The notes under the pieces were generated by a model. That model did not search any database. It saw only the letters and a program-made list of their open reading frames with translations, and was not told where the DNA came from. A DNA stretch of 32,540 nucleotides from an uncultured Bacilli bacterium (GTDB lineage: Bacteria; Bacillota_I; Bacilli_A; RF39; UBA660): assembly GCA_944359735.1 (NCBI GenBank), contig CALVTA010000002.1, forward strand, positions 1-32,540. Reading direction: 5' to 3'. The translations under genes and the position numbers were made by a program. This document shows positions 1,379-17,897 of the stretch, in pieces. Each line of letters opens with the position of its first letter. Position 1 is the stretch's first letter.

Positions 1379-2221
1379 TTAACTGACTTTTTTATTTTTT
1401 ATTTTATACAGCCTTAGTACCTCTCTAGCATAATCTATTATTGGATTTAAAGATTTATTATTAATAATAAATTTATCTAAAATTACTCCAGGAAATACAA
1501 ATTTCCCATCTTTAATATATGGCTCTTCAACATCAGTAACTATTTTAAGTATTTGCAAATATTCACGTTTAGTAATAGTTTCAGTATATCCTAACATTTT
1601 TGCAATTTCCCTAAATCTATCTGATTCAATTTTTTCTAAATCAAATATTAAATTTTCTTGTTCTGAAACATAAAAAATATTATCAAAGTATTTTTTTCTC
1701 TCACTTTTTAATAAAAATAAACAGTACTCCTCATAAACATGATTTCTAAAATATTCAACTAATGGAGTTGCACTTGATAGAATCCCTTTTTCAAAATCTA
1801 CAATAAATATCTTATCACTATTTATAATAATATTTCTAGGAGCGAAATCTATCCAAAATATTTTGTTTTTTATAAAAAAATCGAGCAATCCATTAATAAT
1901 ATCTCTTCCTTCAAAATGTCTAGTTTCACTCCTAAGATAAAATTCTAAATTTTCCCCTTCGCAATATTCTAAATATAATATATTACTAGCACTATCCCAA
2001 TTAATTATTCTAGGGATTCCCAATATATATTTTTTACCACTTATAGTAATTATTTCATTACTTATTAATTTTGTAATATATTTAATATTATCAACTTCAT
2101 CAAAATTTGTTTTTTTACAAAAAATTAATGAGTTATTTCGATTTATTATCCATGTTTTCTTAGAGTCATAAGATACAATATATTCCCCATTATAACAGCT
2201 ATTTTTATTTATACTGATCAC
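1379..2221 (-). CDS. Atypical protein-kinase-like fold protein (RIO/Kdo/APH-like), function unknown
   Basis: It has a hinge-like LYLEYCEG, a catalytic-loop-like WIDFAPRNIII (D-x4-N) and a DFG-equivalent IVDFEKG. The only usable start is the GTG at 2221, two nt after the upstream TAG, which suggests translational coupling. Confidence 0.55.
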   Translation of the reverse strand: MISINKNSCYNGEYIVSYDSKKTWIINRNNSLIFCKKTNFDEVDNIKYITKLISNEIITISGKKYILGIPRIINWDSASNILYLEYCEGENLEFYLRSETRHFEGRDIINGLLDFFIKNKIFWIDFAPRNIIINSDKIFIVDFEKGILSSATPLVEYFRNHVYEEYCLFLLKSERKKYFDNIFYVSEQENLIFDLEKIESDRFREIAKMLGYTETITKREYLQILKIVTDVEEPYIKDGKFVFPGVILDKFIINNKSLNPIIDYAREVLRLYKIKNKKVS

Positions 2222-2223
2222 CC

Positions 2224-3168
2224 CTATAATTTATAAATTCTTGTAATTTCATCATGCTGTTTCCAATAAAGACATGTAAAATATTTAAAAAATAATAATT
2301 CCTCCTCTATCACTTTATCTAAACCATAAGATTCCAAAAATATTTTCTCACATTCTCTTATTTTCTCTTTATCTTTTAATATCCCAGAAAAAATAATTAT
2401 CATAAACATTGTCCAAAAAATATCATAATGTCTATTACAAAAACCAGCATCACCAAAATCAATCATTTTAATATTTTGATCACTATTTATAAATATATTA
2501 TTAGGATTAAAATCACCATGCACTAAAGTTAAATTATGATATAAAATCTCTTTATTTTTTATTAAATATTTTTTCATTTCATCTATATTATCATAACCCA
2601 TATATTCAACCATATATACCAAACAAACATCATTTTTCATAGCTTCATTAAAACTAACTTCATATTTCTTTTGAAACAATTCTCTTTCCAATTCACTAAA
2701 ATCCTGTTTAATTAAGTTTTCATCATGAAACTGCCGTAATTTTCTTCCAAAGAATGTAGCTATTTCTTGATACGAATTAAAATAATATCCTGCTGTCGGT
2801 AAATTAATTTTTTCGGTAACCATAATTTCATATTCACCAAGATTAAAATATTTAAGAGGTTTAGACGTATAATTTTTTCTATAAAAATATTTATAAGCAA
2901 TATATTCATAATATAAATTACCGCTCTTAGAAAATTTAATAACAAATTCATCTTCGTTATTTTTATCTTTTTTTACAATTAAAACAGAATTACCTGAATA
3001 TCCTGATTTATCATATAAATCTCTACCATTTATCAATGATCGTATGTAATTAAATACTTTTTCACCTTTCAAATTTTTTTCTGCTAATATTTTAAAAAAT
3101 TCTCCATTAACTATAATTTTTTCATTAATTGGTTCAACACCATCTAGATGACTTCCTGTTTTAATCAT
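2224..3168 (-). CDS. Aminoglycoside/choline-kinase-type phosphotransferase (APH family)
   Basis: The Brenner motif LVHGDFNPNNIF and the metal-binding MIDFGDAGFCNRHYDI are both present, with an N-lobe SGNSVLIVKK...FVIKFS. The RBS GGAGG lies 9 nt upstream. The start overlaps the upstream stop in ATGATTAA. Confidence 0.8.
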   Translation of the reverse strand: MIKTGSHLDGVEPINEKIIVNGEFFKILAEKNLKGEKVFNYIRSLINGRDLYDKSGYSGNSVLIVKKDKNNEDEFVIKFSKSGNLYYEYIAYKYFYRKNYTSKPLKYFNLGEYEIMVTEKINLPTAGYYFNSYQEIATFFGRKLRQFHDENLIKQDFSELERELFQKKYEVSFNEAMKNDVCLVYMVEYMGYDNIDEMKKYLIKNKEILYHNLTLVHGDFNPNNIFINSDQNIKMIDFGDAGFCNRHYDIFWTMFMIIIFSGILKDKEKIRECEKIFLESYGLDKVIEEELLFFKYFTCLYWKQHDEITRIYKL

Positions 3169-3859
3169 AATTTATATCCTCCAGAAAATAATCAAGAGTA
3201 CACAATTTGCCTTTATAGTTAATAACAGCTTTACTCAAAATTAAATATGAACCATAATAATGTATATTTTCATTATCACCTATAATATAACAATCATCAT
3301 TCATAACTACTATATCAGAATAATACGAAGCTTCTTCTATGTCTTTCCAATGTTTTTTATTTTTAAAATCACAATGTGGTTCAATATTAATAGTTGTTAT
3401 TCCCAAACCTTTATAAATAGATAATTGTGGAATATTATCTTCTTCATCTTTTGCCAATACAACATTTTCTGCCATATTAATAGCACCAGCTGACATACCT
3501 ACAATAATTTTTTCTTTATTTTTTATTTCCTTCTTTAATTTATATTTATTTATATAATCTATTTGTGAAAGAGTATCCCCACCTAATAAAAACACTATAT
3601 TAGAATCATGAATATTTTTAAGCATCTGTTTATTATTTATTCGTTCATCAATAACATAAACCTGATCAAAAATCAATCCTTTCTTATCAAAAAGATTTAT
3701 CAATTTATTAATAAAATTATCATTTGCAGCATATGTATCAAAAGTTGCAGCAACAAAAGAAACAATTATTTTATCTACACAATTTTTTCTAATAAACTCT
3801 ACTATTTCCTCATCCATCTCCATATTTTTAAAAGAGCCACTTATTAAAACATATTTCAT
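3161..3859 (-). CDS. S51-family serine hydrolase (peptidase E / cyanophycinase-like)
   Basis: Recognisable motifs are VFLLGGDT (GGN/D), the nucleophile elbow GMSAGAINM and a downstream IEPHCD His. I placed the start at MKYVLISG (ATG 3859), 2 nt after the upstream stop, rather than at the ORF-track start 3928, which would overlap the upstream gene by 68 nt. Confidence 0.7.
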   Translation of the reverse strand: MKYVLISGSFKNMEMDEEIVEFIRKNCVDKIIVSFVAATFDTYAANDNFINKLINLFDKKGLIFDQVYVIDERINNKQMLKNIHDSNIVFLLGGDTLSQIDYINKYKLKKEIKNKEKIIVGMSAGAINMAENVVLAKDEEDNIPQLSIYKGLGITTINIEPHCDFKNKKHWKDIEEASYYSDIVVMNDDCYIIGDNENIHYYGSYLILSKAVINYKGKLCTLDYFLEDINYD

Positions 3860-3860
3860 A

Positions 3861-5045
3861 TTATCTTTTTCTCCGTTTCTGTGGATAATCCAATCCGATT
3901 GGATTAGCAACTGACACAATATTTTCAAAATCTAAAAGCATCTGTAACCATCTATCAATACTTAAACCTAAACTAACAGTCGAAGGAAGCCCCCATTCAA
4001 AATAACTCAAAGGATTAATATTGTTTCCTAATAACTTTTGAGCTTCTAATACTTCATCTATATTCTTCATATTATTTTCATCACTATAATAATGCGAAAC
4101 AAAATGTCCATTTACATACCATCTTACTTCTTTCCTTAAACCGTCACATTCATCTTTTTTTATAAAAGGTGAATTACAAGGAAAATTTAATACAATCGTG
4201 TTCACAAATTCCTTTTTCAATTGTTCATATTCAGTTTTACTATCCACAATATCTTTATAATCAATTATCTTCAATTTTTTATCTGAAATAATAATTTTAT
4301 ATTTTTCTGCTAATTCTTTTGATAAGTTATCAATTTGTTTAACAAAATCTGTTAATTTATTTAAATCATTTGAAATAGAAACTAACTCAAGCATCAAAAA
4401 TTCATTAATATGTGAGCTATCTTCACCCATATTCCTAAATACTTTGTCAATAGCATAAGTTGAATGCAATGTAAGTGCTGTCATTTGTTTTAGTTGATTT
4501 TCTAATGTAATTCGCAAATATCTAGGTACATTATTTTTTCTATTTTCAATTACAGCTTCCCTAACATTACTCCCATTAGCATAGTATTCAACGGTATTTA
4601 TCAAACCTGTCGCTTCTAAATAACCTAATGAATTAAGTATTTCCCTTATTCTATTAATCAATTCTCTCTTATATTTCAAAATTTGAATTTGAAAGCCACC
4701 ATTTCTAGCATCTAAATATTCTCTTTGCCTATAATCAATAACAGTTTTATTTATTCCTTTTCCAGACTCAAAATTATTACATGATACAATTTCTAAAATT
4801 TTAGTAATTTTTTTTATATTTCTCCCCTTACTATTAAGTTCATACATATATAAAACATTAATCAAATCACCACATTTAATATTAGCTAATAAATTATTAT
4901 CTATCATAAACTGTGCGTTATTATATTCCTTAGTATAAGCATTAATAAATGAAACATTTTTATGTTTCCTAATTGAAAGTACCCTTATATACACTTTATT
5001 AGCCCCCTCACTACTAAAGTAATTTTTTAAACGAGTATATAACAT
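3861..5045 (-). CDS. Divergent class IIb aminoacyl-tRNA-synthetase paralog (LysRS/EpmA-like), 394 aa
   Basis: The N-terminus is OB-like (VYIRVLSIRKHKNVSFINAY), followed by QREYLDAR (compare RYLDL). A motif-1 region reads RIREILNSLGYLEATGL. YLRITLENQLKQ resembles the LysRS segment YLRIAPELYLKR. Motif 2 is VFRNMGEDSSHINEFLMLE and motif 3 is GLSIDRWLQMLL. No Shine-Dalgarno sequence precedes the ATG at 5045. Confidence 0.7.
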   Translation of the reverse strand: MLYTRLKNYFSSEGANKVYIRVLSIRKHKNVSFINAYTKEYNNAQFMIDNNLLANIKCGDLINVLYMYELNSKGRNIKKITKILEIVSCNNFESGKGINKTVIDYRQREYLDARNGGFQIQILKYKRELINRIREILNSLGYLEATGLINTVEYYANGSNVREAVIENRKNNVPRYLRITLENQLKQMTALTLHSTYAIDKVFRNMGEDSSHINEFLMLELVSISNDLNKLTDFVKQIDNLSKELAEKYKIIISDKKLKIIDYKDIVDSKTEYEQLKKEFVNTIVLNFPCNSPFIKKDECDGLRKEVRWYVNGHFVSHYYSDENNMKNIDEVLEAQKLLGNNINPLSYFEWGLPSTVSLGLSIDRWLQMLLDFENIVSVANPIGLDYPQKRRKR

Positions 5046-5060
5046 TATGCTGTAGAAAAA

Positions 5061-5077
5061 TGTCGAATTTTGTCGAA
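5061..5077 (+). promoter_or_regulatory. Two tandem perfect Spo0A boxes (TGTCGAA-TTT-TGTCGAA)
   Basis: Exact matches to the 0A-box consensus TGNCGAA sit at 5061-5067 and 5071-5077. They are direct repeats with a 10-bp period, which is the arrangement bound by a Spo0A dimer at abrB. They lie 16-32 nt upstream of the aaRS-like ATG. Confidence 0.6.
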
Positions 5078-5142: not shown

Positions 5143-5301
5143 CTACTTAATTCCTACAAATTTCTTCCTCCATTCTTCTCTATCTTTATAATAATTATTT
5201 TTAAAATCAACATCACCATTAACTAAACTTAAATTAACTTTTCCATGTTTTAACATATATAAATATCTAATCTTCATTAGATAATCTTTTTCACTTTTCA
5301 T
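5143..5301 (-). CDS. Small hypothetical protein (52 aa), absent from the ORF track
   Basis: The RBS GGAGGC (complement of 5306-5311, overlapping the sigE stop) lies 4 nt before the ATG at 5301. The translation is MKSEKDYLMKIRYLYMLKHGKVNLSLVNGDVDFKNNYYKDREEWRKKFVGIK. I recognise no homology. Confidence 0.35.
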   Translation of the reverse strand: MKSEKDYLMKIRYLYMLKHGKVNLSLVNGDVDFKNNYYKDREEWRKKFVGIK

Positions 5302-5310
5302 TATTGCCTC

Positions 5311-6003
5311 CTATGAATACTTAACAATATTTTTTAATCTTCTTATAACTTTTTTTTCAATTCTTGATATATAAGATTGACTAATACCAAGTAAATCTGC
5401 AACCTCCTTTTGAGTCAACTCTTTATGTCCCATCAAACCATATCGCAAAATTATAATATCTCTATCACGAGGATTTAGTCTCATGACTTCATCAAGCATC
5501 AATTTTTTATCAGTTTCCTCCTCTATTCCTTTCGTTACAATATCACCATCAGTGCCCAAAATATCCTCAAGATGTAATTCATTACCTTCTGCATCAAAAC
5601 TCAAAGATGCATCAATGCTAACTTCCGTTTTTGACTTTTTAATCTTTCTTAAATACATCAAGATCTCATTATCAATACACCTTGAAGCATAAGTTGCAAG
5701 TTTTATATTTTTGTCTTTTTTAAAAGTATTTATACCCTTAATAAGACCAATCGTACCTATACTAACTAAATCTTCCAAATCAACCTTTGTATTCTCATAC
5801 TTTTTAGCAAGAAATACAACCAGCCTTAAATTATGTTCTATTAAAACATCTCTTGCATGTAAATCACCATCAAGAGCCATAACAAGATAAGCTTCCTCTT
5901 CCTCTTTTGATAAAGGCTCTGGTAAAATATCACTACTTCCTACATAAAATATTTCATAAGATTTATCAAGCAAAAACGCAACTAAATAAAGTAAACTAAT
6001 CAT
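5311..6003 (-). CDS. sigE: Sporulation sigma factor sigma-E (pro-sigma-E)
   Basis: The sequence is near-collinear with B. subtilis SigE: FYVGSSDILPEPLSKEEE, HNLRLVVFLAKKYENT, LVSIGTIGLIKGINTF, ATYASRCIDNEILMYLRK, GISQSYISRIEKK. There is a hydrophobic pro-sequence. The gene directly follows spoIIGA, with the RBS GAGGAGG lying inside the spoIIGA 3' end. Confidence 0.93.
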   Translation of the reverse strand: MISLLYLVAFLLDKSYEIFYVGSSDILPEPLSKEEEEAYLVMALDGDLHARDVLIEHNLRLVVFLAKKYENTKVDLEDLVSIGTIGLIKGINTFKKDKNIKLATYASRCIDNEILMYLRKIKKSKTEVSIDASLSFDAEGNELHLEDILGTDGDIVTKGIEEETDKKLMLDEVMRLNPRDRDIIILRYGLMGHKELTQKEVADLLGISQSYISRIEKKVIRRLKNIVKYS

Positions 6004-6789
6004 TTAAAGTTCCTCCTCTATAATATTAGGTAAAATACAACTAGCTCCTTTTATTTTTAATTCTTTAGGACTGACTCCAAGCAGATATTTATTATTAAGT
6101 AAATTCCCGTCTATCTTAATTTCCTCTATTTCCATACATCTAAGCAACCCTCTATTACTAACTGTCTTAAATGGTACTAATATTGCCTCTTCTAAATTAA
6201 TTTTCACTTCTTTAGGATCAATAATAATAATTGACCTTTTTTTATAAGGATCCTTAATATTATTACCAGTATCTAAAAATCCTAAAGTATTAACTATACC
6301 CTTCTTATATTTAATTGTAACTTTGTGCAACAATTCAATTTTCTTTTTCTCTTTCATCATCATTTTATGATATAAATAGAAAATAATAGGACTACTAATT
6401 ATAATTATAATTAAATTTAAGCTAGTACCATCATGAATAAAAATAAAACCTTTCTGCTTATAACTAAACTGATTATTAAAAAAATAAATAAGGCCACCCA
6501 AAATAATACTATTTCCATATAAACTTTTAATAAGAGTGAAAAATAATTGTCTTGATTTAACTTTAAAGCCTACCAAGATCATAACAACACTTATTAGAAA
6601 TTTAAAAAGAAATAAAGAAAAATTATTAAGAGGTAGAAACAAAAGAAATGTACTTAAACTTCCTAAAAATGCTGATATAATTAATTTTCGTTTTTTAGAA
6701 AAGACTTTACATTCTATACTAACTGTCATTAAAAGGAGTAAATCAAACATAAAATTAATAAAGAATATTAAATCTAAATACACTTTCAT
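6004..6789 (-). CDS. spoIIGA: Sigma-E processing aspartic peptidase SpoIIGA
   Basis: The N-terminus MKVYLDLIFFINFMFDLLLL matches B. subtilis MKIYLDVIWLLNF. The protein has five TM-like segments and the catalytic FLDTGN motif. I placed the start at ATG 6789 rather than the upstream GTG 6807. Confidence 0.9.
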   Translation of the reverse strand: MKVYLDLIFFINFMFDLLLLMTVSIECKVFSKKRKLIISAFLGSLSTFLLFLPLNNFSLFLFKFLISVVMILVGFKVKSRQLFFTLIKSLYGNSIILGGLIYFFNNQFSYKQKGFIFIHDGTSLNLIIIIISSPIIFYLYHKMMMKEKKKIELLHKVTIKYKKGIVNTLGFLDTGNNIKDPYKKRSIIIIDPKEVKINLEEAILVPFKTVSNRGLLRCMEIEEIKIDGNLLNNKYLLGVSPKELKIKGASCILPNIIEEEL

Positions 6790-6812
6790 TTCTACCACCA
6801 CTATCACTATAC

Positions 6813-6877: not shown

Positions 6878-8965
6878 TTAAGAACTATACTTTTCAATTT
6901 TATTATTAGTAAAATCAAACATAACCATTCCATTCATTCTAATATCATAAATAATCGTACCATTAGTATGTAATCTCTCTACTATTTCATCATGAGGATG
7001 ATTAAACTTATTATTAACTCCTGCTGAAATTAAAGCATAAGTAGGATTTACTTGTTTAATAAACTCTTCACTACTACTAGTCCTAGAGCCATGATGTCCA
7101 ACTTTTAATATTGTAACATTACTAATATCATAATTATTTAAAATATATTTTTCACTTCTAATACTAGCATCTCCCATAAACAATATTTTTCTATCATAAA
7201 TAGTACTATAAATGACAAGACTACTATCATTTTCATCATCGTATGTGTTAGAAATAATTAAAAAATTAAAATTACCCAAACTAAAACTATCGCCCTCTTT
7301 TAACTTATAATGGATAGAAGAATTATTCCAAATTTTTTTCTCTAAGTCATTTAATTGATTGTTATTAAAAAAAACTGTTTCAACATCTATCTCATCCATA
7401 ATAGTTAAAGCTTCTCCTGCATGGTCATAATCACCATGAGTTAAAACCAGATAATCAAGTTTAGTTATTCCTAACTGATAAAGAAAATTAACTATATACT
7501 CCCCCTTCTTTGTTTTTTCGTACACTTGCCATTCTTCCTTATAATACTCCATAACCCCTCCAGTATCTATCAGCATAGATCTATTATTAGATACCAGCAA
7601 AAAACAATCACCTTGTCCTACATCTATCATATAAAGAGCATCTTTAGAAAATACCAAAGGAAAAACATAATGCAAAATAATTCCTATAAAAAGGAAATAA
7701 AGAAAAATATAACTTTTCTTCTTAAAAAATAAATAGGCAAATATCAAAAGATAATATAAGAAATAAAAACAAATATTTATTCTTCTCAAGACAATAAAAC
7801 CAAATTTAAATTCAGAAAAAAAATTAACACTAACTTCAAACATATTTATAAAAAATTCCAAAACAAATGATAAATGCGGAATAAAGAAAACAATCATCGA
7901 TAATGGAAACATTATAATATTAATAAAAGGTACATAAAATAAATTGTATATTATACTAAGAGGATTAATATAAGAAAAATGATATAAAGAAATGGGTAAA
8001 CTAACCAAGAAGCTTACCCAAGATACTTTTAATAATTCTCGTATTTTCCCTATTTTCTTTTTATTATCCATATATAATATTAAAGTACAACTAATAACTG
8101 TAGAATACTGAAACCCAATATCATAAATATAATATGGATTCAAGAAAAATAAAATACTAAGAGAAAATAATATTAGAAAGAAAGGTTTTATTTGTAAATT
8201 GAGGATCTTATTTAAAGAAAAAACTATACTAAATACAATCGCTCTATCAATAGTAGCACAAGAATCAATAAAAAAATAATAGACAAATATAGCCAAATAA
8301 ATTAAAAGGAGTTTGCGTAAACTTACATTTTTTTTAAATCTACTGAATATCGCTTGTAATATTACAAACAAAAAACTTATTTGTGTACCAGAAAGAGCAA
8401 AGAGATGAGAAATACCTAACTTTTGAAATTTTTCTTCTAACTCTACATCAAAATTAGTATCATTTCCTAAAAAGAAAACATTTACATAATTACTAACTTT
8501 ATCGTTAGTAATACTATTTCTAAGGATAGTTTTCACCTCTTTTAAAATATTACTATTTTTATTTTCTATGGAAAATTCAGATGTTTTCAAAAGGTAAAAT
8601 ACTCCTTTACGTTTTAAATAGGCTGGGTAGGAAAAACTATAAAAATTTTTACTAGAAAGAGGTTTGACTAATTCACCCTCTAATTTAAGTACATCACCTA
8701 ATGAAAGATTCTTCTTTACTTTTTCTAAGGTATCCTCAGTATCAAAATAATATGTGGCAATAAGGTTTTCTTTTGCTTTAATCAACATTGTCATTTTATT
8801 ACCCTCATACTCCAAACTAACAACTTCTCCAATAAAATCTTTTTCACTCCCTCCATATTTAGAAGTATGATCAATATTTATACAAATAAATAGGTAAAAA
8901 ATGCTTATAACAAATAATAAAATATACAAATAATTAAGTAGTAATATTTTCCTTAATTTGATCAA
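6878..8965 (-). CDS. comEC: DNA internalization competence protein ComEC/Rec2
   Basis: It has an N-terminal OB/DUF4131-like region, a polytopic membrane core and a C-terminal metallo-beta-lactamase domain (DVGQGDCFLL, LTHGDYDHAG, GHHGS). Confidence 0.9.
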   Translation of the reverse strand: MIKLRKILLLNYLYILLFVISIFYLFICINIDHTSKYGGSEKDFIGEVVSLEYEGNKMTMLIKAKENLIATYYFDTEDTLEKVKKNLSLGDVLKLEGELVKPLSSKNFYSFSYPAYLKRKGVFYLLKTSEFSIENKNSNILKEVKTILRNSITNDKVSNYVNVFFLGNDTNFDVELEEKFQKLGISHLFALSGTQISFLFVILQAIFSRFKKNVSLRKLLLIYLAIFVYYFFIDSCATIDRAIVFSIVFSLNKILNLQIKPFFLILFSLSILFFLNPYYIYDIGFQYSTVISCTLILYMDNKKKIGKIRELLKVSWVSFLVSLPISLYHFSYINPLSIIYNLFYVPFINIIMFPLSMIVFFIPHLSFVLEFFINMFEVSVNFFSEFKFGFIVLRRINICFYFLYYLLIFAYLFFKKKSYIFLYFLFIGIILHYVFPLVFSKDALYMIDVGQGDCFLLVSNNRSMLIDTGGVMEYYKEEWQVYEKTKKGEYIVNFLYQLGITKLDYLVLTHGDYDHAGEALTIMDEIDVETVFFNNNQLNDLEKKIWNNSSIHYKLKEGDSFSLGNFNFLIISNTYDDENDSSLVIYSTIYDRKILFMGDASIRSEKYILNNYDISNVTILKVGHHGSRTSSSEEFIKQVNPTYALISAGVNNKFNHPHDEIVERLHTNGTIIYDIRMNGMVMFDFTNNKIEKYSS

Positions 8966-11310: not shown

Positions 11311-11859
11311 ATGTTAAAAAATAAAGATATATTAGACGAAAAAGATAAAAGATTACGTTTAGTTAGTAAAGATGTTACATTTCCTTTAAGTAAAGAAGAC
11401 TTAAAAAATATTGATTTAATGGTTGAATACCTAACTAATAGCCAAATTGAACGATTAGCTGAAAAATATAATCTTCGTCCTGGCATGGGTATGGCTGCTA
11501 TTCAATTAGGAATTCCTAAAAGATATTTAACTATTGTTCATGAAGTTGGAGAAGAAGAATTCGATACTTATATTATATGTAATCCTAAAATTGTTAGTAA
11601 TTCAATGGAAAAAATTTATGTTGAAATGGGAGAAGGATGTCTTTCTGTAAATCGTGAGGTAGATGGAATTGTTCCAAGATATGCTAGAGTTACAGTTGAA
11701 GGATATGATATAAATGGAAATAAAATTAGAATTAGAGCAAGGGAAGAACTTGCCATTGCTTTCCAACATGAAATAGACCATTTAAATGGGATCATGTTTA
11801 CTGATTATATTGATCCTAAAGCTCCTTTTAAAGATGCTGATAAATATAGATCTATTTAA
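11311..11859 (+). CDS. def: Peptide deformylase
   Basis: All three catalytic motifs are present: GMGMAAIQLG (GxGxAAxQ), EGCLS and HEIDHLNG. Confidence 0.95.
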   Translation: MLKNKDILDEKDKRLRLVSKDVTFPLSKEDLKNIDLMVEYLTNSQIERLAEKYNLRPGMGMAAIQLGIPKRYLTIVHEVGEEEFDTYIICNPKIVSNSMEKIYVEMGEGCLSVNREVDGIVPRYARVTVEGYDINGNKIRIRAREELAIAFQHEIDHLNGIMFTDYIDPKAPFKDADKYRSI

Positions 11860-11885
11860 AAAAGTAGGAAATACCTACTTTTTTA
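11858..11885. terminator. Bidirectional terminator between convergent genes
   Basis: AAAGTAGG-AAATA-CCTACTTT is flanked by an A run upstream and a T run downstream. Confidence 0.65.
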
Positions 11886-12641
11886 CTTTATCCCACTTTT
11901 ATTGCCATAATATAAAGCTAATACTTGTAACTTATCATCATCACAAGATAAATCAGGTATCTCATATAACAACTTGTTAAATGAAGTTATTATCTCTTCA
12001 TAAGAAAGACTTTTTATAATCTTTCCTTGTAACACCTTTCTTGCTTCTTCTTTACTCATATACAAAGCATTGCTTGCTATATCCAAAGTCTTCTCATTAT
12101 TTTCTAAATAAGCATGATAATGACCACCCACAAACAGATTATTATCATAAGACAAAACAGCTTTGTAATCTTTATTTTCTTTAATAAAATCAAAACTGCG
12201 AGCAAAACACCATCCCTTCAAAGGCTTTTCAAATATATAGCTAGTTTTACTATTTTTAAAGAAATCACTTGCTCTTCGCACCATAATAATACCCTTATTA
12301 GTCTTCAATTTATAAATACCATCAAAAATACTAAAATCCTCTATTCCTGGCCACAACAAAGCCTTTTCATCCCCTTCTAACAAGTGATAAATTGCATTAT
12401 GAATAGATGAAATATAATTAAAACCATATTCATTTAAAATTTTTTCTAATACTAAATGTTTATGATCTTTTTTAAGATAAAAATAATTATATAAAAGACT
12501 ATTAAGTGGATTATCATCATATTTATGATAAAATCCTACCGTTTTATATTTATCAATAATGAATTTTGCTACCTGAACATTCTGATCAAAATACCTAATT
12601 TCTGTATCTAAATACTGTCTATCAACTACATTAAATTCCAT
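11883..12641 (-). CDS. Hypothetical cytoplasmic protein, possible transglutaminase/papain-like Cys-His-Asp fold
   Basis: There is no signal peptide. The order KGWCFARSFDF ... GGHYHAYLE ... LDIASN resembles the G-x-C / H-x-W/Y-x-E / D pattern of transglutaminase-like cysteine peptidases. The assignment is weak. Confidence 0.35.
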   Translation of the reverse strand: MEFNVVDRQYLDTEIRYFDQNVQVAKFIIDKYKTVGFYHKYDDNPLNSLLYNYFYLKKDHKHLVLEKILNEYGFNYISSIHNAIYHLLEGDEKALLWPGIEDFSIFDGIYKLKTNKGIIMVRRASDFFKNSKTSYIFEKPLKGWCFARSFDFIKENKDYKAVLSYDNNLFVGGHYHAYLENNEKTLDIASNALYMSKEEARKVLQGKIIKSLSYEEIITSFNKLLYEIPDLSCDDDKLQVLALYYGNKSGIK

Positions 12642-12709
12642 AACCTTACCACCCTATTACTAGTATAACAAATATTTCTGTAAAGGAATAGATATTTCTT
12701 TTTAAATGA

Positions 12710-12738
12710 TTTACAAAACATAAGACAACTGCTAAAAT
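12710..12738 (+). promoter_or_regulatory. Sigma-A-type promoter (TTTACA-17-TAAAAT)
   Basis: The -35 TTTACA is at 12710-12715, the spacer is 17 nt and the -10 TAAAAT is at 12733-12738. This is 16 nt upstream of the ATG of the transglutaminase-like gene (RBS AGGAGG at 12745-12750). Confidence 0.4.
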
Positions 12739-12754
12739 TAGATAGGAGGATACA

Positions 12755-13666
12755 ATGAAAAAATATATTACTTTAATTTTTCTAATAATACTATTTGGCT
12801 TTACATATACATTTAGAAAGCCTTTATATAATTTATATAGAACTTATCTTATAAAAGAAAATAAAAATATAACTTTAAATGAAAAAAATAATTATAGTAG
12901 AGATTACAACTTTAATTATGTAAGTTTAACTAATAATTTTAGTCCTAGTAATTACCAAGATTTATTGAATATATACTTTACAGTTCTAAACTCAGGAATT
13001 ACTACATTTTCATTTTACTGCCCTAATAATTATACAGAATGTATAAATGATGTTGATAGTCTTGCTAATAACCAAAAAACTCTATCTACTATTAACAACT
13101 TTGTTCATCCTTTTAATAGTTTCAAACATCTAGAAACTAGTTATGATGATTATGGCAAAGTCACTTTAAAAATAGAACATATCTATACCGATAGTGATAT
13201 TAAATTAATAGAATCCAAAGTCAAAAATATAGAAAAAGAAATATGGCAAAACAACATGACGGAAGAAGATAAAATAAAAGCAGCCCATAATTATATTATA
13301 AATAACAGTAAATACGATAAAGATAGAAGTGATAATAATATTGTAAAATACAAATCTGATACGGCTTATGGAACTCTTTTAGAAGGATACAGTCTTTGTG
13401 GTGGATATACTGATGCCATGGAATTATTTTTAGAAGATATGAATTTAAAAAGCTACAAAGTAGCCTCTGAAAATCACGTTTGGAATGCCTTATATATTAA
13501 TGAAAATTGGTATCATCTAGATCTTACTTGGGATGATCCTATTACAACCGATGGTAGCGATATTTTAGAATATAATTTTTTCTTAATAACGACAAGTGAA
13601 TTAGAAAGTCTAGAAGCCGAACAACATATTTACGATAAAACTATTTACAGTGAACTTGCAACTTAA
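12755..13666 (+). CDS. Membrane-anchored transglutaminase-like domain protein
   Basis: There is an N-terminal TM/signal anchor (ITLIFLIILFGF). The transglutaminase-core triad context reads YSLCGGYTDAMELF ... ENHVWNALYI ... WYHLDLTWDD. Confidence 0.75.
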   Translation: MKKYITLIFLIILFGFTYTFRKPLYNLYRTYLIKENKNITLNEKNNYSRDYNFNYVSLTNNFSPSNYQDLLNIYFTVLNSGITTFSFYCPNNYTECINDVDSLANNQKTLSTINNFVHPFNSFKHLETSYDDYGKVTLKIEHIYTDSDIKLIESKVKNIEKEIWQNNMTEEDKIKAAHNYIINNSKYDKDRSDNNIVKYKSDTAYGTLLEGYSLCGGYTDAMELFLEDMNLKSYKVASENHVWNALYINENWYHLDLTWDDPITTDGSDILEYNFFLITTSELESLEAEQHIYDKTIYSELAT

Positions 13667-17673: not shown

Positions 17674-17897
17674 AAAAAATAACTATAACTTAAGGGAGTC
17701 TACAATGAGTATACTCGGTACCACCTTAATTTATAGTTATTTAACTATTCTCATTATCTTAACGCGAAAACAACGCCTATAATTTTATTATAGGAACTCC
17801 TAAGATGAATTCATAAACTATTCTTATCTATTTCCACCTACCATAGACTCTCTTTAAAGAAATCATTTACTACTACTTCTTAATCACAGCCATTTCA
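17674..17897 (-). promoter_or_regulatory. T-box leader (tRNA-Phe specifier UUC) with intrinsic terminator
   Basis: The minus strand carries an AGAGA bay and a GGUGGAAA distal-loop-like element. The specifier-loop context is GAA-UUC-A (codon at 17809-17807). The conserved T-box AAUUAAGGUGGUACCGAG is the complement of 17714-17731. A terminator follows (AAUAACUAUAAAUUAAGG ... CCCUUAAGUUAUAGUUAU plus U6 at 17679-17674), and its 5' arm overlaps the T-box. Confidence 0.85.

Follow-up and report, generated by a model that had tools for sequence, protein, structure and literature searches.

The window analysed here, a stretch of 32,540 nt from an uncultured Bacilli bacterium (contig CALVTA010000002.1), carries on its minus strand, at positions 1379–5045, four consecutive and tightly packed open reading frames (ORFs) that encode a short paralogue of class II lysyl-tRNA synthetase (LysRS), a serine hydrolase of the S51 family, an APH-fold kinase and a second, minimal kinase-fold enzyme. 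This cassette is conserved as a unit in unrelated chromosomal settings, folds could be assigned to its products, and the residues that these retain or alter were identified by alignment. The core of the module is the shortened LysRS paralogue together with its dedicated S51 hydrolase, a partnership that recurs in distant relatives. It is proposed, tentatively, that the four genes constitute one functional module outside the translation apparatus, which makes or holds a lysyl (or lysine-like) ester, probably on a tRNA.

The LysRS paralogue (protein 1; 377 aa, GTG start) is encoded at 3861–4994, the S51 Ser/His hydrolase (protein 2; 232 aa) at 3161–3859, the APH-fold kinase (protein 3; 314 aa) at 2224–3168 and the RIO/Bud32-like kinase-fold enzyme (protein 4; 280 aa, GTG start) at 1379–2221. 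A preliminary description of the locus, made from the DNA alone, had presented these as four co-directional, coupled genes, and re-reading of the sequence verified the ORFs, their coordinates and all three junctions. The first junction reads TAATATG (3863–3857), the S51 gene starting 1 nt past the stop of the synthetase-like gene. At the second, ATGATTAA (3168–3161), the start of the APH gene overlaps the S51 stop, and at the third, TAGGGGTG (2226–2219), the GTG start of the fourth gene lies 2 nt past the APH stop. The S51 start is taken as the ATG at 3859, which replaces the upstream TTG of the mechanical ORF list. Protein 1 had been given as 394 aa; an ORF of that length, from the ATG at 5045, does exist, but the start is almost certainly the GTG at 4994, because the database gene call for the same sequence starts there (377 aa) and because the starts of aligned homologues differ from it by only a few residues and coincide with, or slightly precede, the conserved IRVLSIRKHK. 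The putative ribosome-binding sequence GAGGGGG (5009–5003) is situated eight bases before this GTG.

Protein 1 matched PF00152 at 61.9 bits. Its scores against the models for genuine LysRS were well below the cut-offs (72.8 bits against 427.6 for the LysS equivalog TIGR00499, and 70.2 against 468 for NF001756), as were those against the models for EpmA (45.3 bits against 286.9 for TIGR00462, and 46.6 against 264 for NF006828) and AspS (about 20 bits, with cut-offs of 353–368). A search of the PDB with the family profile returned 34 LysRS sequences and one weak AspRS. The AlphaFold2 model of the protein (predicted local distance difference test score, pLDDT, 84.1; predicted template modelling score, pTM, 0.83) has an N-terminal beta-barrel, an OB fold comprising residues 1 to about 72, followed by a truncated class IIb catalytic core. 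When this model was used as a Foldseek query, the top matches were nearly all LysRS (E 5e–21, TMq 0.75), with two archaeal AspRS chains in the first 50. Alignment with genuine LysRS puts the protein at about 120 aa shorter; about 65 aa are lost with an N-terminal helix, and a further 60 aa or so between motifs 2 and 3. The preliminary description had recognized the shortening, although it set the figure at about 100 aa. These structural statements rest on models and alignments. The equivalog score supports the suggestion that the protein is a repurposed, LysRS-derived paralogue and not a housekeeping LysRS, whereas the 'EpmA flavour' ascribed to it was not borne out, since it keeps the OB domain that is absent in EpmA and reaches only 45–47 bits with EpmA models that require 264–287.

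The motifs quoted in the preliminary description for all four proteins are present in the sequence, those of protein 1 being YLRITLENQLKQ, VFRNMGEDSSHINEFLMLE and GLSIDRW. Alignment with genuine LysRS also confirmed the two departures noted at the outset, EATGL, in which the proline of motif 1 is lost, and FRNM, in which the glutamate of motif 2 is replaced by methionine. The arginines of motifs 2 and 3, which bind ATP, are retained in the branch to which the window protein belongs. In the OB domain, the signature Arg4, Arg9, Lys12, Phe16 and Gln28 aligns with identical residues of genuine LysRS, a class IIb enzyme; class IIb synthetases employ these residues at the anticodon, as in the AspRS and LysRS complexes. 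For the active site, LysRS residues are numbered here according to what we take to be the LysU scheme (Glu240, Glu278, Glu414, Glu421, Asn424, Phe426 and Glu428). The glutamates that align with Glu240 and Glu278, the pair that holds the amino group of the amino acid, are invariant in 23 of 23 aligned sequences, genuine LysRS included. Three changes in the pocket were found relative to LysRS (Asn424 to His, Phe426 to Tyr and Glu428 to Asp), and the LysRS segment RFE..GxE..NAFxELND corresponds to xExRW..GH(F/W)..HxYxDEN in the paralogue. The side-chain pocket, as judged from these alignments, appears to be remodelled yet still acidic.

Protein 2 is a member of the S51 family (PF03575, 58.4 bits against a gathering score of 23.9), with the intact GxSAG elbow initially reported (GMSAGA) and the sequence EPHC. 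Ser123 of the nucleophile elbow, His162 and a Gly-Gly pair are invariant in eight sequences, and the catalytic serine aligns with that of the cyanophycinase 7uqv. The protein fails the models for cyanophycinase (TIGR02069, 33.2 bits against 126.6) and for the dipeptidase PepE (NF003642, 23.1 bits against 156). It shares 31% identity (E 7e–34) with the S51 protein of a distant cassette, L019 (loci are designated here by L numbers and individual homologous proteins by P numbers), any solved S51 structure being far more distant (E 0.004). In one homologous locus, L002, two extra divergent S51 paralogues (11692–12456 and 12595–13275) follow the cassette, with 19–24% identity to the cassette S51.

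Protein 3 matched PF01636 at 37.3 bits, against a gathering score of 23.2, which places it in the APH/choline-kinase fold; HGDFNPNN and IDFGD are both present, in agreement with the assignment made from the sequence. Invariant in 25 sequences are His217-Gly-Asp219, Asn224, Asp237 and the beta-3 lysine, Lys78, together with the Gly-rich loop (SGYSG) and the IDF motif. The protein does not reach the APH(3') model NF033068 (49.5 bits against 205), and the best PDB match of the family profile, APH(3')-IIIa, has an E value of only 9e–7. Protein 4, predicted from the outset to be a second kinase-fold protein, contains DFAPRN and VDFE and remains under every Pfam and NCBIfam cut-off, with sub-threshold matches only (23.4 bits for the Bud32 model, with a cut-off of 125, and a faint match to RIO1). 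Its AlphaFold2 model (pLDDT 91.4) shows the fold of a protein kinase, extended by helices at the C-terminus, and Foldseek matched it to kinase folds at E values of about 1e–4, the most compact of which were RIO1 (4otp), Rio2 (6fdn) and Bud32 (3en9). The match is modest, with a root-mean-square deviation of about 5 Å over 160–190 columns. Lys36, Asp125, Asn130 and Asp142 are invariant in 39 sequences. All four proteins of the cassette look catalytically competent.

Relatives of protein 1 are few. A total of 51 were found among 5.8 billion clustered proteins, nearly all of the full-length ones being 374–387 aa long, and those that carry names are called 'hypothetical'. The protein occurs in 3 of 185,579 species-representative genomes, all of them metagenome-assembled genomes (MAGs) of uncultured 'Bacilli/Bacillota'; one comes from goat colon, one apparently from rabbit (its bin name being 'Lapin') and the third has no stated source. 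The MAGs with the cassette are JAFQQE01, SVAK01 and CANQBI01. The APH-like family is equally narrow, with 35 proteins in comparison with the 51 synthetase-like ones, and the two members looked up from contigs outside the synthetase-like list were both situated in complete cassettes.

The gene order synthetase-like, S51, APH, fourth kinase is kept at each window-type locus with sufficient sequence, in seven distinct cassettes (that of the window and six others). The genes overlap or nearly abut and look co-transcribed, and the flanks of these cassettes fall into five or six unrelated sets. The window cassette lies between sigE upstream and fur downstream; those of L001 (= L007) and L004 between the suf operon and an acyl-CoA-synthetase-like gene; that of L002 between relA and the two extra S51 genes; that of L017 between a HIT gene and cotE; and that of L018 between ftsW/spoVE and a NUDIX gene. 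The cassette of L006 precedes a P-type ATPase gene. In the cassette of the most divergent member, L008 (34% identity), the synthetase-like gene faces a convergent S51–APH pair and there is no fourth kinase. Chance juxtaposition of the four genes, one of the outcomes that the preliminary description had named as fatal to its proposal, is ruled out by this recurrence of the cassette with differing flanks.

The fourth gene is an accessory, because its family also occurs alone and because the gene is missing from L008; the constant unit is the triad of synthetase-like, S51 and APH genes. The fourth-kinase family comprises 73 proteins and is therefore broader than the synthetase-like and APH-like families. 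Homologues outside the cassette were seen at L013 (7001–7846) and L015 (7001–7798), where the kinase genes are convergent to a conserved group that encodes a Zeta toxin, an MBL-fold (Apyc1-like) protein and a radical S-adenosylmethionine (SAM) enzyme, plus a NUDIX protein.

Some other features of the cassette surroundings were recorded. A RelA/SpoT gene is situated directly upstream of the LysRS-like gene in L002 (6484–7920, a cassette of the window type) and in L022 (1–1257, of the distant type with radical-SAM and class I LysRS genes), and within 4–6 kb upstream in L001 and L004; a possible reason is that the ancestral place on the chromosome was close to the relA-dtd-hisS-aspS region of Bacillota. 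Scans with ARAGORN and Rfam around all of the cassettes revealed no special tRNA, T-box or lysine riboswitch. A gene for tRNA-Arg(CCT) is located at 8743–8822 of L006, a locus of the goat-colon MAG, and lies 1.2 kb upstream of the cassette; this is the only cassette with a tRNA gene nearby.

A profile search of 1.84 billion representative proteins returned 2,163 matches, and the best-scoring of these include many short (about 350–410 aa) LysRS-like proteins that are distinct from genuine LysRS. It is apparent that the window protein belongs to a wider superfamily, the distant subfamilies of which share 22–30% identity with it. These short proteins have in common the two glutamates and the OB signature, as well as an invariant Glu-x-(Arg/Lys)-Trp, the sequence His-Gly-Tyr-x-Asp-Glu and a C-terminal N-x-L-G-(I/L); the Glu-x-(Arg/Lys)-Trp and His-Gly-Tyr-x-Asp-Glu sequences stand where the LysRS motifs would be. 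All five residues of the OB signature rank within the top 31 positions of the superfamily by conservation. The residues of the amino-acid pocket also hardly vary, even between branches whose accessory genes differ greatly.

Gene neighbourhoods of the distant branches were surveyed at about ten loci, and a metagenome scan with the subfamily alignment yielded seven loci. Across the superfamily, an S51 gene adjoins the paralogue in six of the eight distinct gene arrangements that were read. In L019 and L022 the paralogue gene is followed, in this order, by genes for a class-B radical-SAM enzyme, a 342-aa protein of no recognized family, a HAD protein, a SAM methyltransferase, an S51 protein and a class I LysRS, and the same set appears in a different order in L025. 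The arrangement in L028 is class I LysRS, a MoaA-like radical-SAM enzyme, the paralogue and a radical-SAM/B12 fusion. In L026 the order is paralogue, S51; in L021 it is radical SAM, an unassigned gene, paralogue, S51 (a weak match), carbamoyltransferase; and in L029 it is a P-loop AAA_28 protein (similar to the NadR RNK domain), S51, paralogue. Mutual identity is only 38–39% among the class I LysRS genes of L022, L025 and L028, which occupy three different gene orders; their adjacency has therefore outlasted long divergence and rearrangement. A kinase recurs in non-homologous forms, namely the APH fold (window), the P-loop AAA_28 protein (L029) and a dTMP kinase (in a fusion, P0087). Three elements thus recur: the paralogue with S51, a phosphate-handling enzyme (a kinase of one of three unrelated folds, or a HAD protein) and, in the distant branches, a class I LysRS.

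The radical-SAM partners are of class-B (B12) or MoaA-like types, and no lysine 2,3-aminomutase model was present among the best 25 NCBIfam matches of these proteins. The conserved protein of 342–355 aa always follows the class-B radical-SAM gene (L019, 2653–3681; L010, 2063–3091; L025, 5429–6496), and it gave no Pfam or NCBIfam match. The 342-aa neighbour and another of 308 aa in distant cassettes were considered as hidden kinases and rejected, hhalign and BLASTP having shown no relationship. Two fusions of the paralogue were observed: P0115 (621 aa), with an N-terminal radical-SAM domain and a tail that resembles an assembly artefact, and P0087 (614 aa), with the dTMP kinase at its C-terminus, which is possibly also an artefact of assembly.

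Taken together, these data suggest a mechanism centred on tRNA, which adds a third reading to the two hypotheses of the preliminary description; we infer in it what the substrate is, that tRNA is involved, in which direction the S51 step runs and what the kinases act on. The paralogue would bind tRNA-Lys or a similar RNA via its OB domain, and would make and/or hold a lysyl (or lysine-like) ester, first as lysyl-AMP and then as lysyl-tRNA. The S51 serine would accept the aminoacyl group and then hydrolyse it or hand it to an acceptor. The APH-fold kinase would phosphorylate a hydroxyl of a partner molecule (the acceptor, the product or the ribose end), and in most genomes the RIO/Bud32-like kinase would assist it. 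A continued role with tRNA is suggested because the anticodon-binding OB residues are highly conserved and mostly survive even in branches that have lost the ATP site. It is suggested also because the synthetase that partners the paralogue in distant cassettes is of the other class, and such a pair can share one tRNA (PMC2916919). A lysine-like aminoacyl ligand in all branches is indicated by the invariance of the amino-group glutamates and the acidic character of the pocket.

A further reading, which we consider quite improbable, is that the paralogues are tRNA-holding scaffolds of a new tRNA-dependent pathway that alters or removes tRNA-borne lysine, either as a route to a non-canonical derivative or as a switch that disables tRNA-Lys. 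Here the tRNA would be charged with lysine by the paralogue or, in the distant cassettes, by the class I LysRS, and the lysine would then be altered, phosphorylated, transferred or removed by the S51, kinase, radical-SAM, methyltransferase and HAD enzymes. The derivative would be destined for translation or for peptide or cell-envelope synthesis, and the route to it would be comparable in kind to the pyrrolysine or Sep/Sec systems.

Several observations weigh against the proposal of a lysyl ester on tRNA. No tRNA gene, T-box or riboswitch was found near the cassettes, apart from the tRNA-Arg(CCT) gene of L006 and the pheS T-box of the window. The case for tRNA binding is built on conserved residues, and the OB fold could instead serve for protein contacts. 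Lysine has no hydroxyl, which leaves the substrate of the kinases unexplained, and the enzymes encoded beside the distant paralogues (radical SAM, methyltransferase, HAD and carbamoyltransferase) have the look of small-molecule tailoring enzymes. The Mg2+-ligating Glu414 of LysRS aligns with an arginine, and Glu421 with a phenylalanine (Trp or Tyr in most homologues); with these glutamates replaced, the adenylation chemistry of the paralogue may be altered, although the lost ligands might be made good by an invariant glutamate that lies on the same strand, two residues upstream. One distant cassette, L010, has no S51 gene within its contig, and the evidence for kinase substitution consists of a single 3.3-kb contig (L029) and the one possibly artefactual fusion.

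In addition, both ATP-binding arginines are lost in L008 (3314–4438), P0051, P0087, P0089 and P0093, where FRN is changed to FYD, FYN or FFN and IDR to FDQ, IDA, VDA or IEK. Catalysis by the paralogue is therefore not universal. The proteins of these branches, to which the L029 paralogue belongs, may be pseudo-enzymes; the residues that bind the amino acid are retained in them, as is most of the OB signature and, where the surroundings are readable (L008 and L029), an S51 neighbour.

The character of the distant partners fits a tRNA-independent small-molecule pathway, which we regard as possible, if rather unlikely. In such a pathway the paralogue would adenylate lysine or an analogue and ligate it to a small acceptor, the S51 protein would trim or transfer, and the kinases would phosphorylate the product; by this route a phosphorylated lysyl conjugate, for instance a metabolite of the aminoacyl-nucleoside or amino-sugar type, would be synthesized or salvaged. 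The class-B radical-SAM enzyme, SAM methyltransferase, HAD protein and carbamoyltransferase beside the distant paralogues are typical tailoring enzymes, and the APH fold is typical of small-molecule kinases, APH(3')-IIIa being the closest solved relative. Moreover, P-loop kinases of nucleoside or nucleotide type take the place of the APH protein elsewhere, the window-type branch keeps both ATP-binding arginines, and synthetase-like enzymes that build bioactive molecules are known, for example SbzA and MshC (PMC9437257). This reading, however, leaves the high conservation of the anticodon-binding OB signature unexplained, as well as the branches that lack the ATP site and yet keep S51 and a kinase. 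It also sits poorly with pocket residues that are nearly invariant in spite of very different accessory genes, and the window-type cassettes have no transporter, carrier protein or regulator as a conserved companion.

The branches without ATP-binding arginines, which keep their amino-acid-binding residues, would suit a binding-only role, and this is one of the points that favour an immunity or detoxification function, the second hypothesis of the preliminary description and one that we consider unlikely. The target would be a lysyl-adenylate mimic or an aminoacyl-nucleoside antibiotic from other gut microbes; the paralogue would act as a decoy or specificity subunit, the S51 protein would split the aminoacyl-nucleoside bond and the kinases would inactivate the nucleoside part. 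A precedent for the hydrolytic step is MccF, which cleaves the aminoacyl-nucleotide type of bond of microcin C as an immunity mechanism. A class I LysRS beside a class-II-like paralogue, as in the distant cassettes, is the pattern expected of a target copy with resistance; among solved structures, the nearest to the APH-like kinase is an antibiotic-resistance kinase; and the distribution of the cassette is patchy and very narrow. No copy was found on a phage or plasmid, however, tblastn searches of phage and plasmid collections having returned only ordinary lysS genes at 20–35% identity. The G+C content of the cassette (22–25%) is the same as that of the neighbouring genes, and the flanks are all core chromosomal genes. 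PADLOC-DB 2.0 contained nothing for the synthetase-like and S51 proteins and gave only short catalytic-loop matches (30–70 residues) for the kinases, PHROGs contained nothing for three of the four proteins, and resistance-type NCBIfam models were not reached. A decoy would have no obvious use for a conserved OB signature, and we know of no natural bacterial aminoacyl-nucleoside directed at LysRS.

The location of the window cassette relates to a third alternative. The surrounding 32.5 kb represents core chromosome, with genes that include dnaE, an rluD-type pseudouridine synthase gene, priA, pheST with a T-box leader, frr, comEA/comEC, spoIIGA and sigE; the cassette comes after sigE and is followed by genes for a Fur-family regulator and rubrerythrin. 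The T-box leader is full-length (108.9 bits; 17689–17896, minus strand), lies about 500 nt upstream of pheS-pheT and is the sole Rfam match in the window. Many spore formers carry sigG after sigE. In the window, spoIIGA-sigE is situated at 5311–6807, no sigG follows it at any point of the 32.5 kb, and sigE is the only sigma-factor gene among the ORFs scanned.

Upstream of the cassette, at 5061–5077, is a tandem 10-bp repeat, AATTCGACA(A)AATTCGACA, with two perfect copies of TGTCGAA 10 bp apart. These are the only two such sites in the window, at –83 and –73 from the GTG start, and we take TGTCGAA to be the Spo0A-box consensus. The first TTCGAC lies 22 nt before CATAAT, a spacing that presumably resembles that of the Spo0A-activated spoIIG promoter, and no sigma-70 promoter with 16–18 bp spacing was found between the boxes and the start of the cassette. 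Control of the cassette by Spo0A in this genome is, on these signals, possible. As a conserved regulatory feature the box pair was rejected, being absent upstream of the homologous cassettes, several of which have sigma-A-like promoters of the TTGACT/TTGATT-17-TATAAT type. Between sigE and the cassette there is also an ORF of 52 aa (MKSEKDYLMKIRYLYML...; 5143–5301, minus strand) with a GGAGG ribosome-binding site, starting 10 nt past the sigE stop. It gave no Pfam or PHROG match, and its candidacy as a precursor peptide was discarded because it is unconserved at every other locus.

A sporulation-stage module under Spo0A or sigma-E, which would modify a spore or forespore component or act in kinase signalling, takes up the timing in the first hypothesis of the preliminary description, in which aminoacyl (Lys-like) transfer with phosphorylation and trimming was placed at sporulation onset. 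It draws on the position after spoIIGA-sigE, on the two TGTCGAA boxes with no canonical sigma-70 promoter, and on copies of the cassette next to cotE/spoIIID (L017), next to an FtsW/SpoVE-family gene (L018) and some 7 kb from ylbD (L001). We consider it very improbable. None of the other loci has the boxes, the sigE neighbourhood or the 52-aa ORF, and the sporulation link is therefore local to this genome and no property of the module. The notion of expression at sporulation onset is likewise weakened by cassettes that follow suf, relA, ftsW/spoVE or a HIT gene, several of them with sigma-A-like promoters. The distant relatives have no sporulation context, and no model for the spore-coat kinases CotS, YsxE or YutH appeared among the NCBIfam matches at E values up to 0.1, the presence of these models in the library being assumed.

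The ordinary explanation, that the juxtaposition is accidental or that the first gene encodes a compact housekeeping LysRS, finds some encouragement in the fact that the window-type flanking sequence read, about 150 kb, contained neither a full-length lysS nor a full-length lysK, but we consider it highly improbable in view of the gene order kept in seven cassettes with different flanks, the score far below the equivalog cut-off, the loss of the motif-1 proline, the motif-2 glutamate and the two aligned Mg2+ glutamates, and the absence of the ATP-binding arginines from the sister proteins of L008 and P0089, which can accordingly be no synthetases.

The tentative proposal of a lysyl ester held on tRNA can be set beside systems already known. 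LysS/LysU provide the best match in sequence and fold, and share with the paralogue the OB signature, all three class II motifs with the arginines of motifs 2 and 3, and the equivalents of Glu240 and Glu278. The paralogue differs from them in being about 120 aa shorter, without the N-terminal helix and with a shortened region between motifs 2 and 3, in having FRNM for FRNE and HxYxDEN for NAFxELND, and in its place within a hydrolase/kinase operon. EpmA (PoxA/GenX), which beta-lysylates elongation factor P, is likewise a non-translational ligase derived from LysRS with a shortened core, and its radical-SAM partner EpmB loosely recalls the radical-SAM genes beside the distant relatives. EpmA has no OB domain, however, whereas the short LysRS paralogues keep theirs among their most conserved parts; no aminomutase gene is present in any window-type cassette; and no S51 or kinase partner of EpmA is known (PMC9437257).

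A class I LysRS and a class II LysRS can act together on one tRNA, as with tRNA-Pyl of Methanosarcina and tRNA-Other of Bacillus cereus (PMC2916919). The genetic linkage of a class-II-type protein and a class I LysRS in L019/L022, L025 and L028 is similar, although in these cassettes a truncated paralogue takes the part of the class II enzyme, the scans revealed no special tRNA gene, and the window-type cassette has no adjoining class I LysRS. Complexes for tRNA-dependent transformation of amino acids include the AspRS–GatCAB transamidosome and the SerRS/PSTK/SepSecS system; they are cited by analogy, with no claim of membership. Like the module described here, they could be viewed as combining an anticodon holder of class II synthetase type, a kinase-type activator and an amidohydrolase-type enzyme. 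They differ in that the S51 and APH-fold partners are unrelated to theirs in sequence, that the pocket of the paralogue predicts a basic amino acid and not an acidic or hydroxyl one, and that their substrates are tRNA-bound, which for the present module is a candidate state only.

The self-resistance and immunity logic of natural products aimed at aminoacyl-tRNA synthetases (SbzA-type synthetase-like biosynthetic enzymes; MccF and MccE for microcin C) offers a further comparison, with a synthetase paralogue in a gene cluster, a serine hydrolase able to split an aminoacyl-nucleotide bond and modifying enzymes, and, in the distant cassettes, a second copy of the target synthetase that belongs to a different class. 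The MccF family is S66, however, and not S51, and the cassette has no precursor peptide, exporter or known product, the upstream 52-aa ORF being unconserved.

The preliminary description had stated that this combination of genes was undescribed, and this remains so: no curated family, defence-system model or paper that covers it was found. None of the curated NCBIfam, defence-system and phage family models covers the synthetase-like or S51 proteins, and literature searches on the gene combination, on LysRS paralogues in defence, on class I LysRS with radical SAM and on self-resistance returned nothing relevant. Repurposed copies of aminoacyl-tRNA synthetases have given rise to new biochemistry on several occasions, in lysylation of elongation factor P, asparagine synthesis, lipid aminoacylation and antibiotic assembly. 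Such paralogues are therefore already known, but the architecture and partnerships reported here have not been described. For LysRS, a 2022 review of synthetase duplications names only LysU, PoxA and LysX (PMC9437257).

The new LysRS-derived family has an unusual architecture, a shortened core joined to a retained anticodon-binding domain, with a hydrolase partner in most of the arrangements that were read, with recurring kinases and, in the distant branches, with a class I LysRS. The proteins of the cassette are small and soluble-looking, and the proposals made here are directly testable with them. If the immunity or the biosynthesis reading is true, the cassette points to a natural product aimed at lysyl-tRNA synthetase. 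If, instead, the reading centred on tRNA is true, the module would represent a new tRNA-dependent pathway in gut Bacillota.

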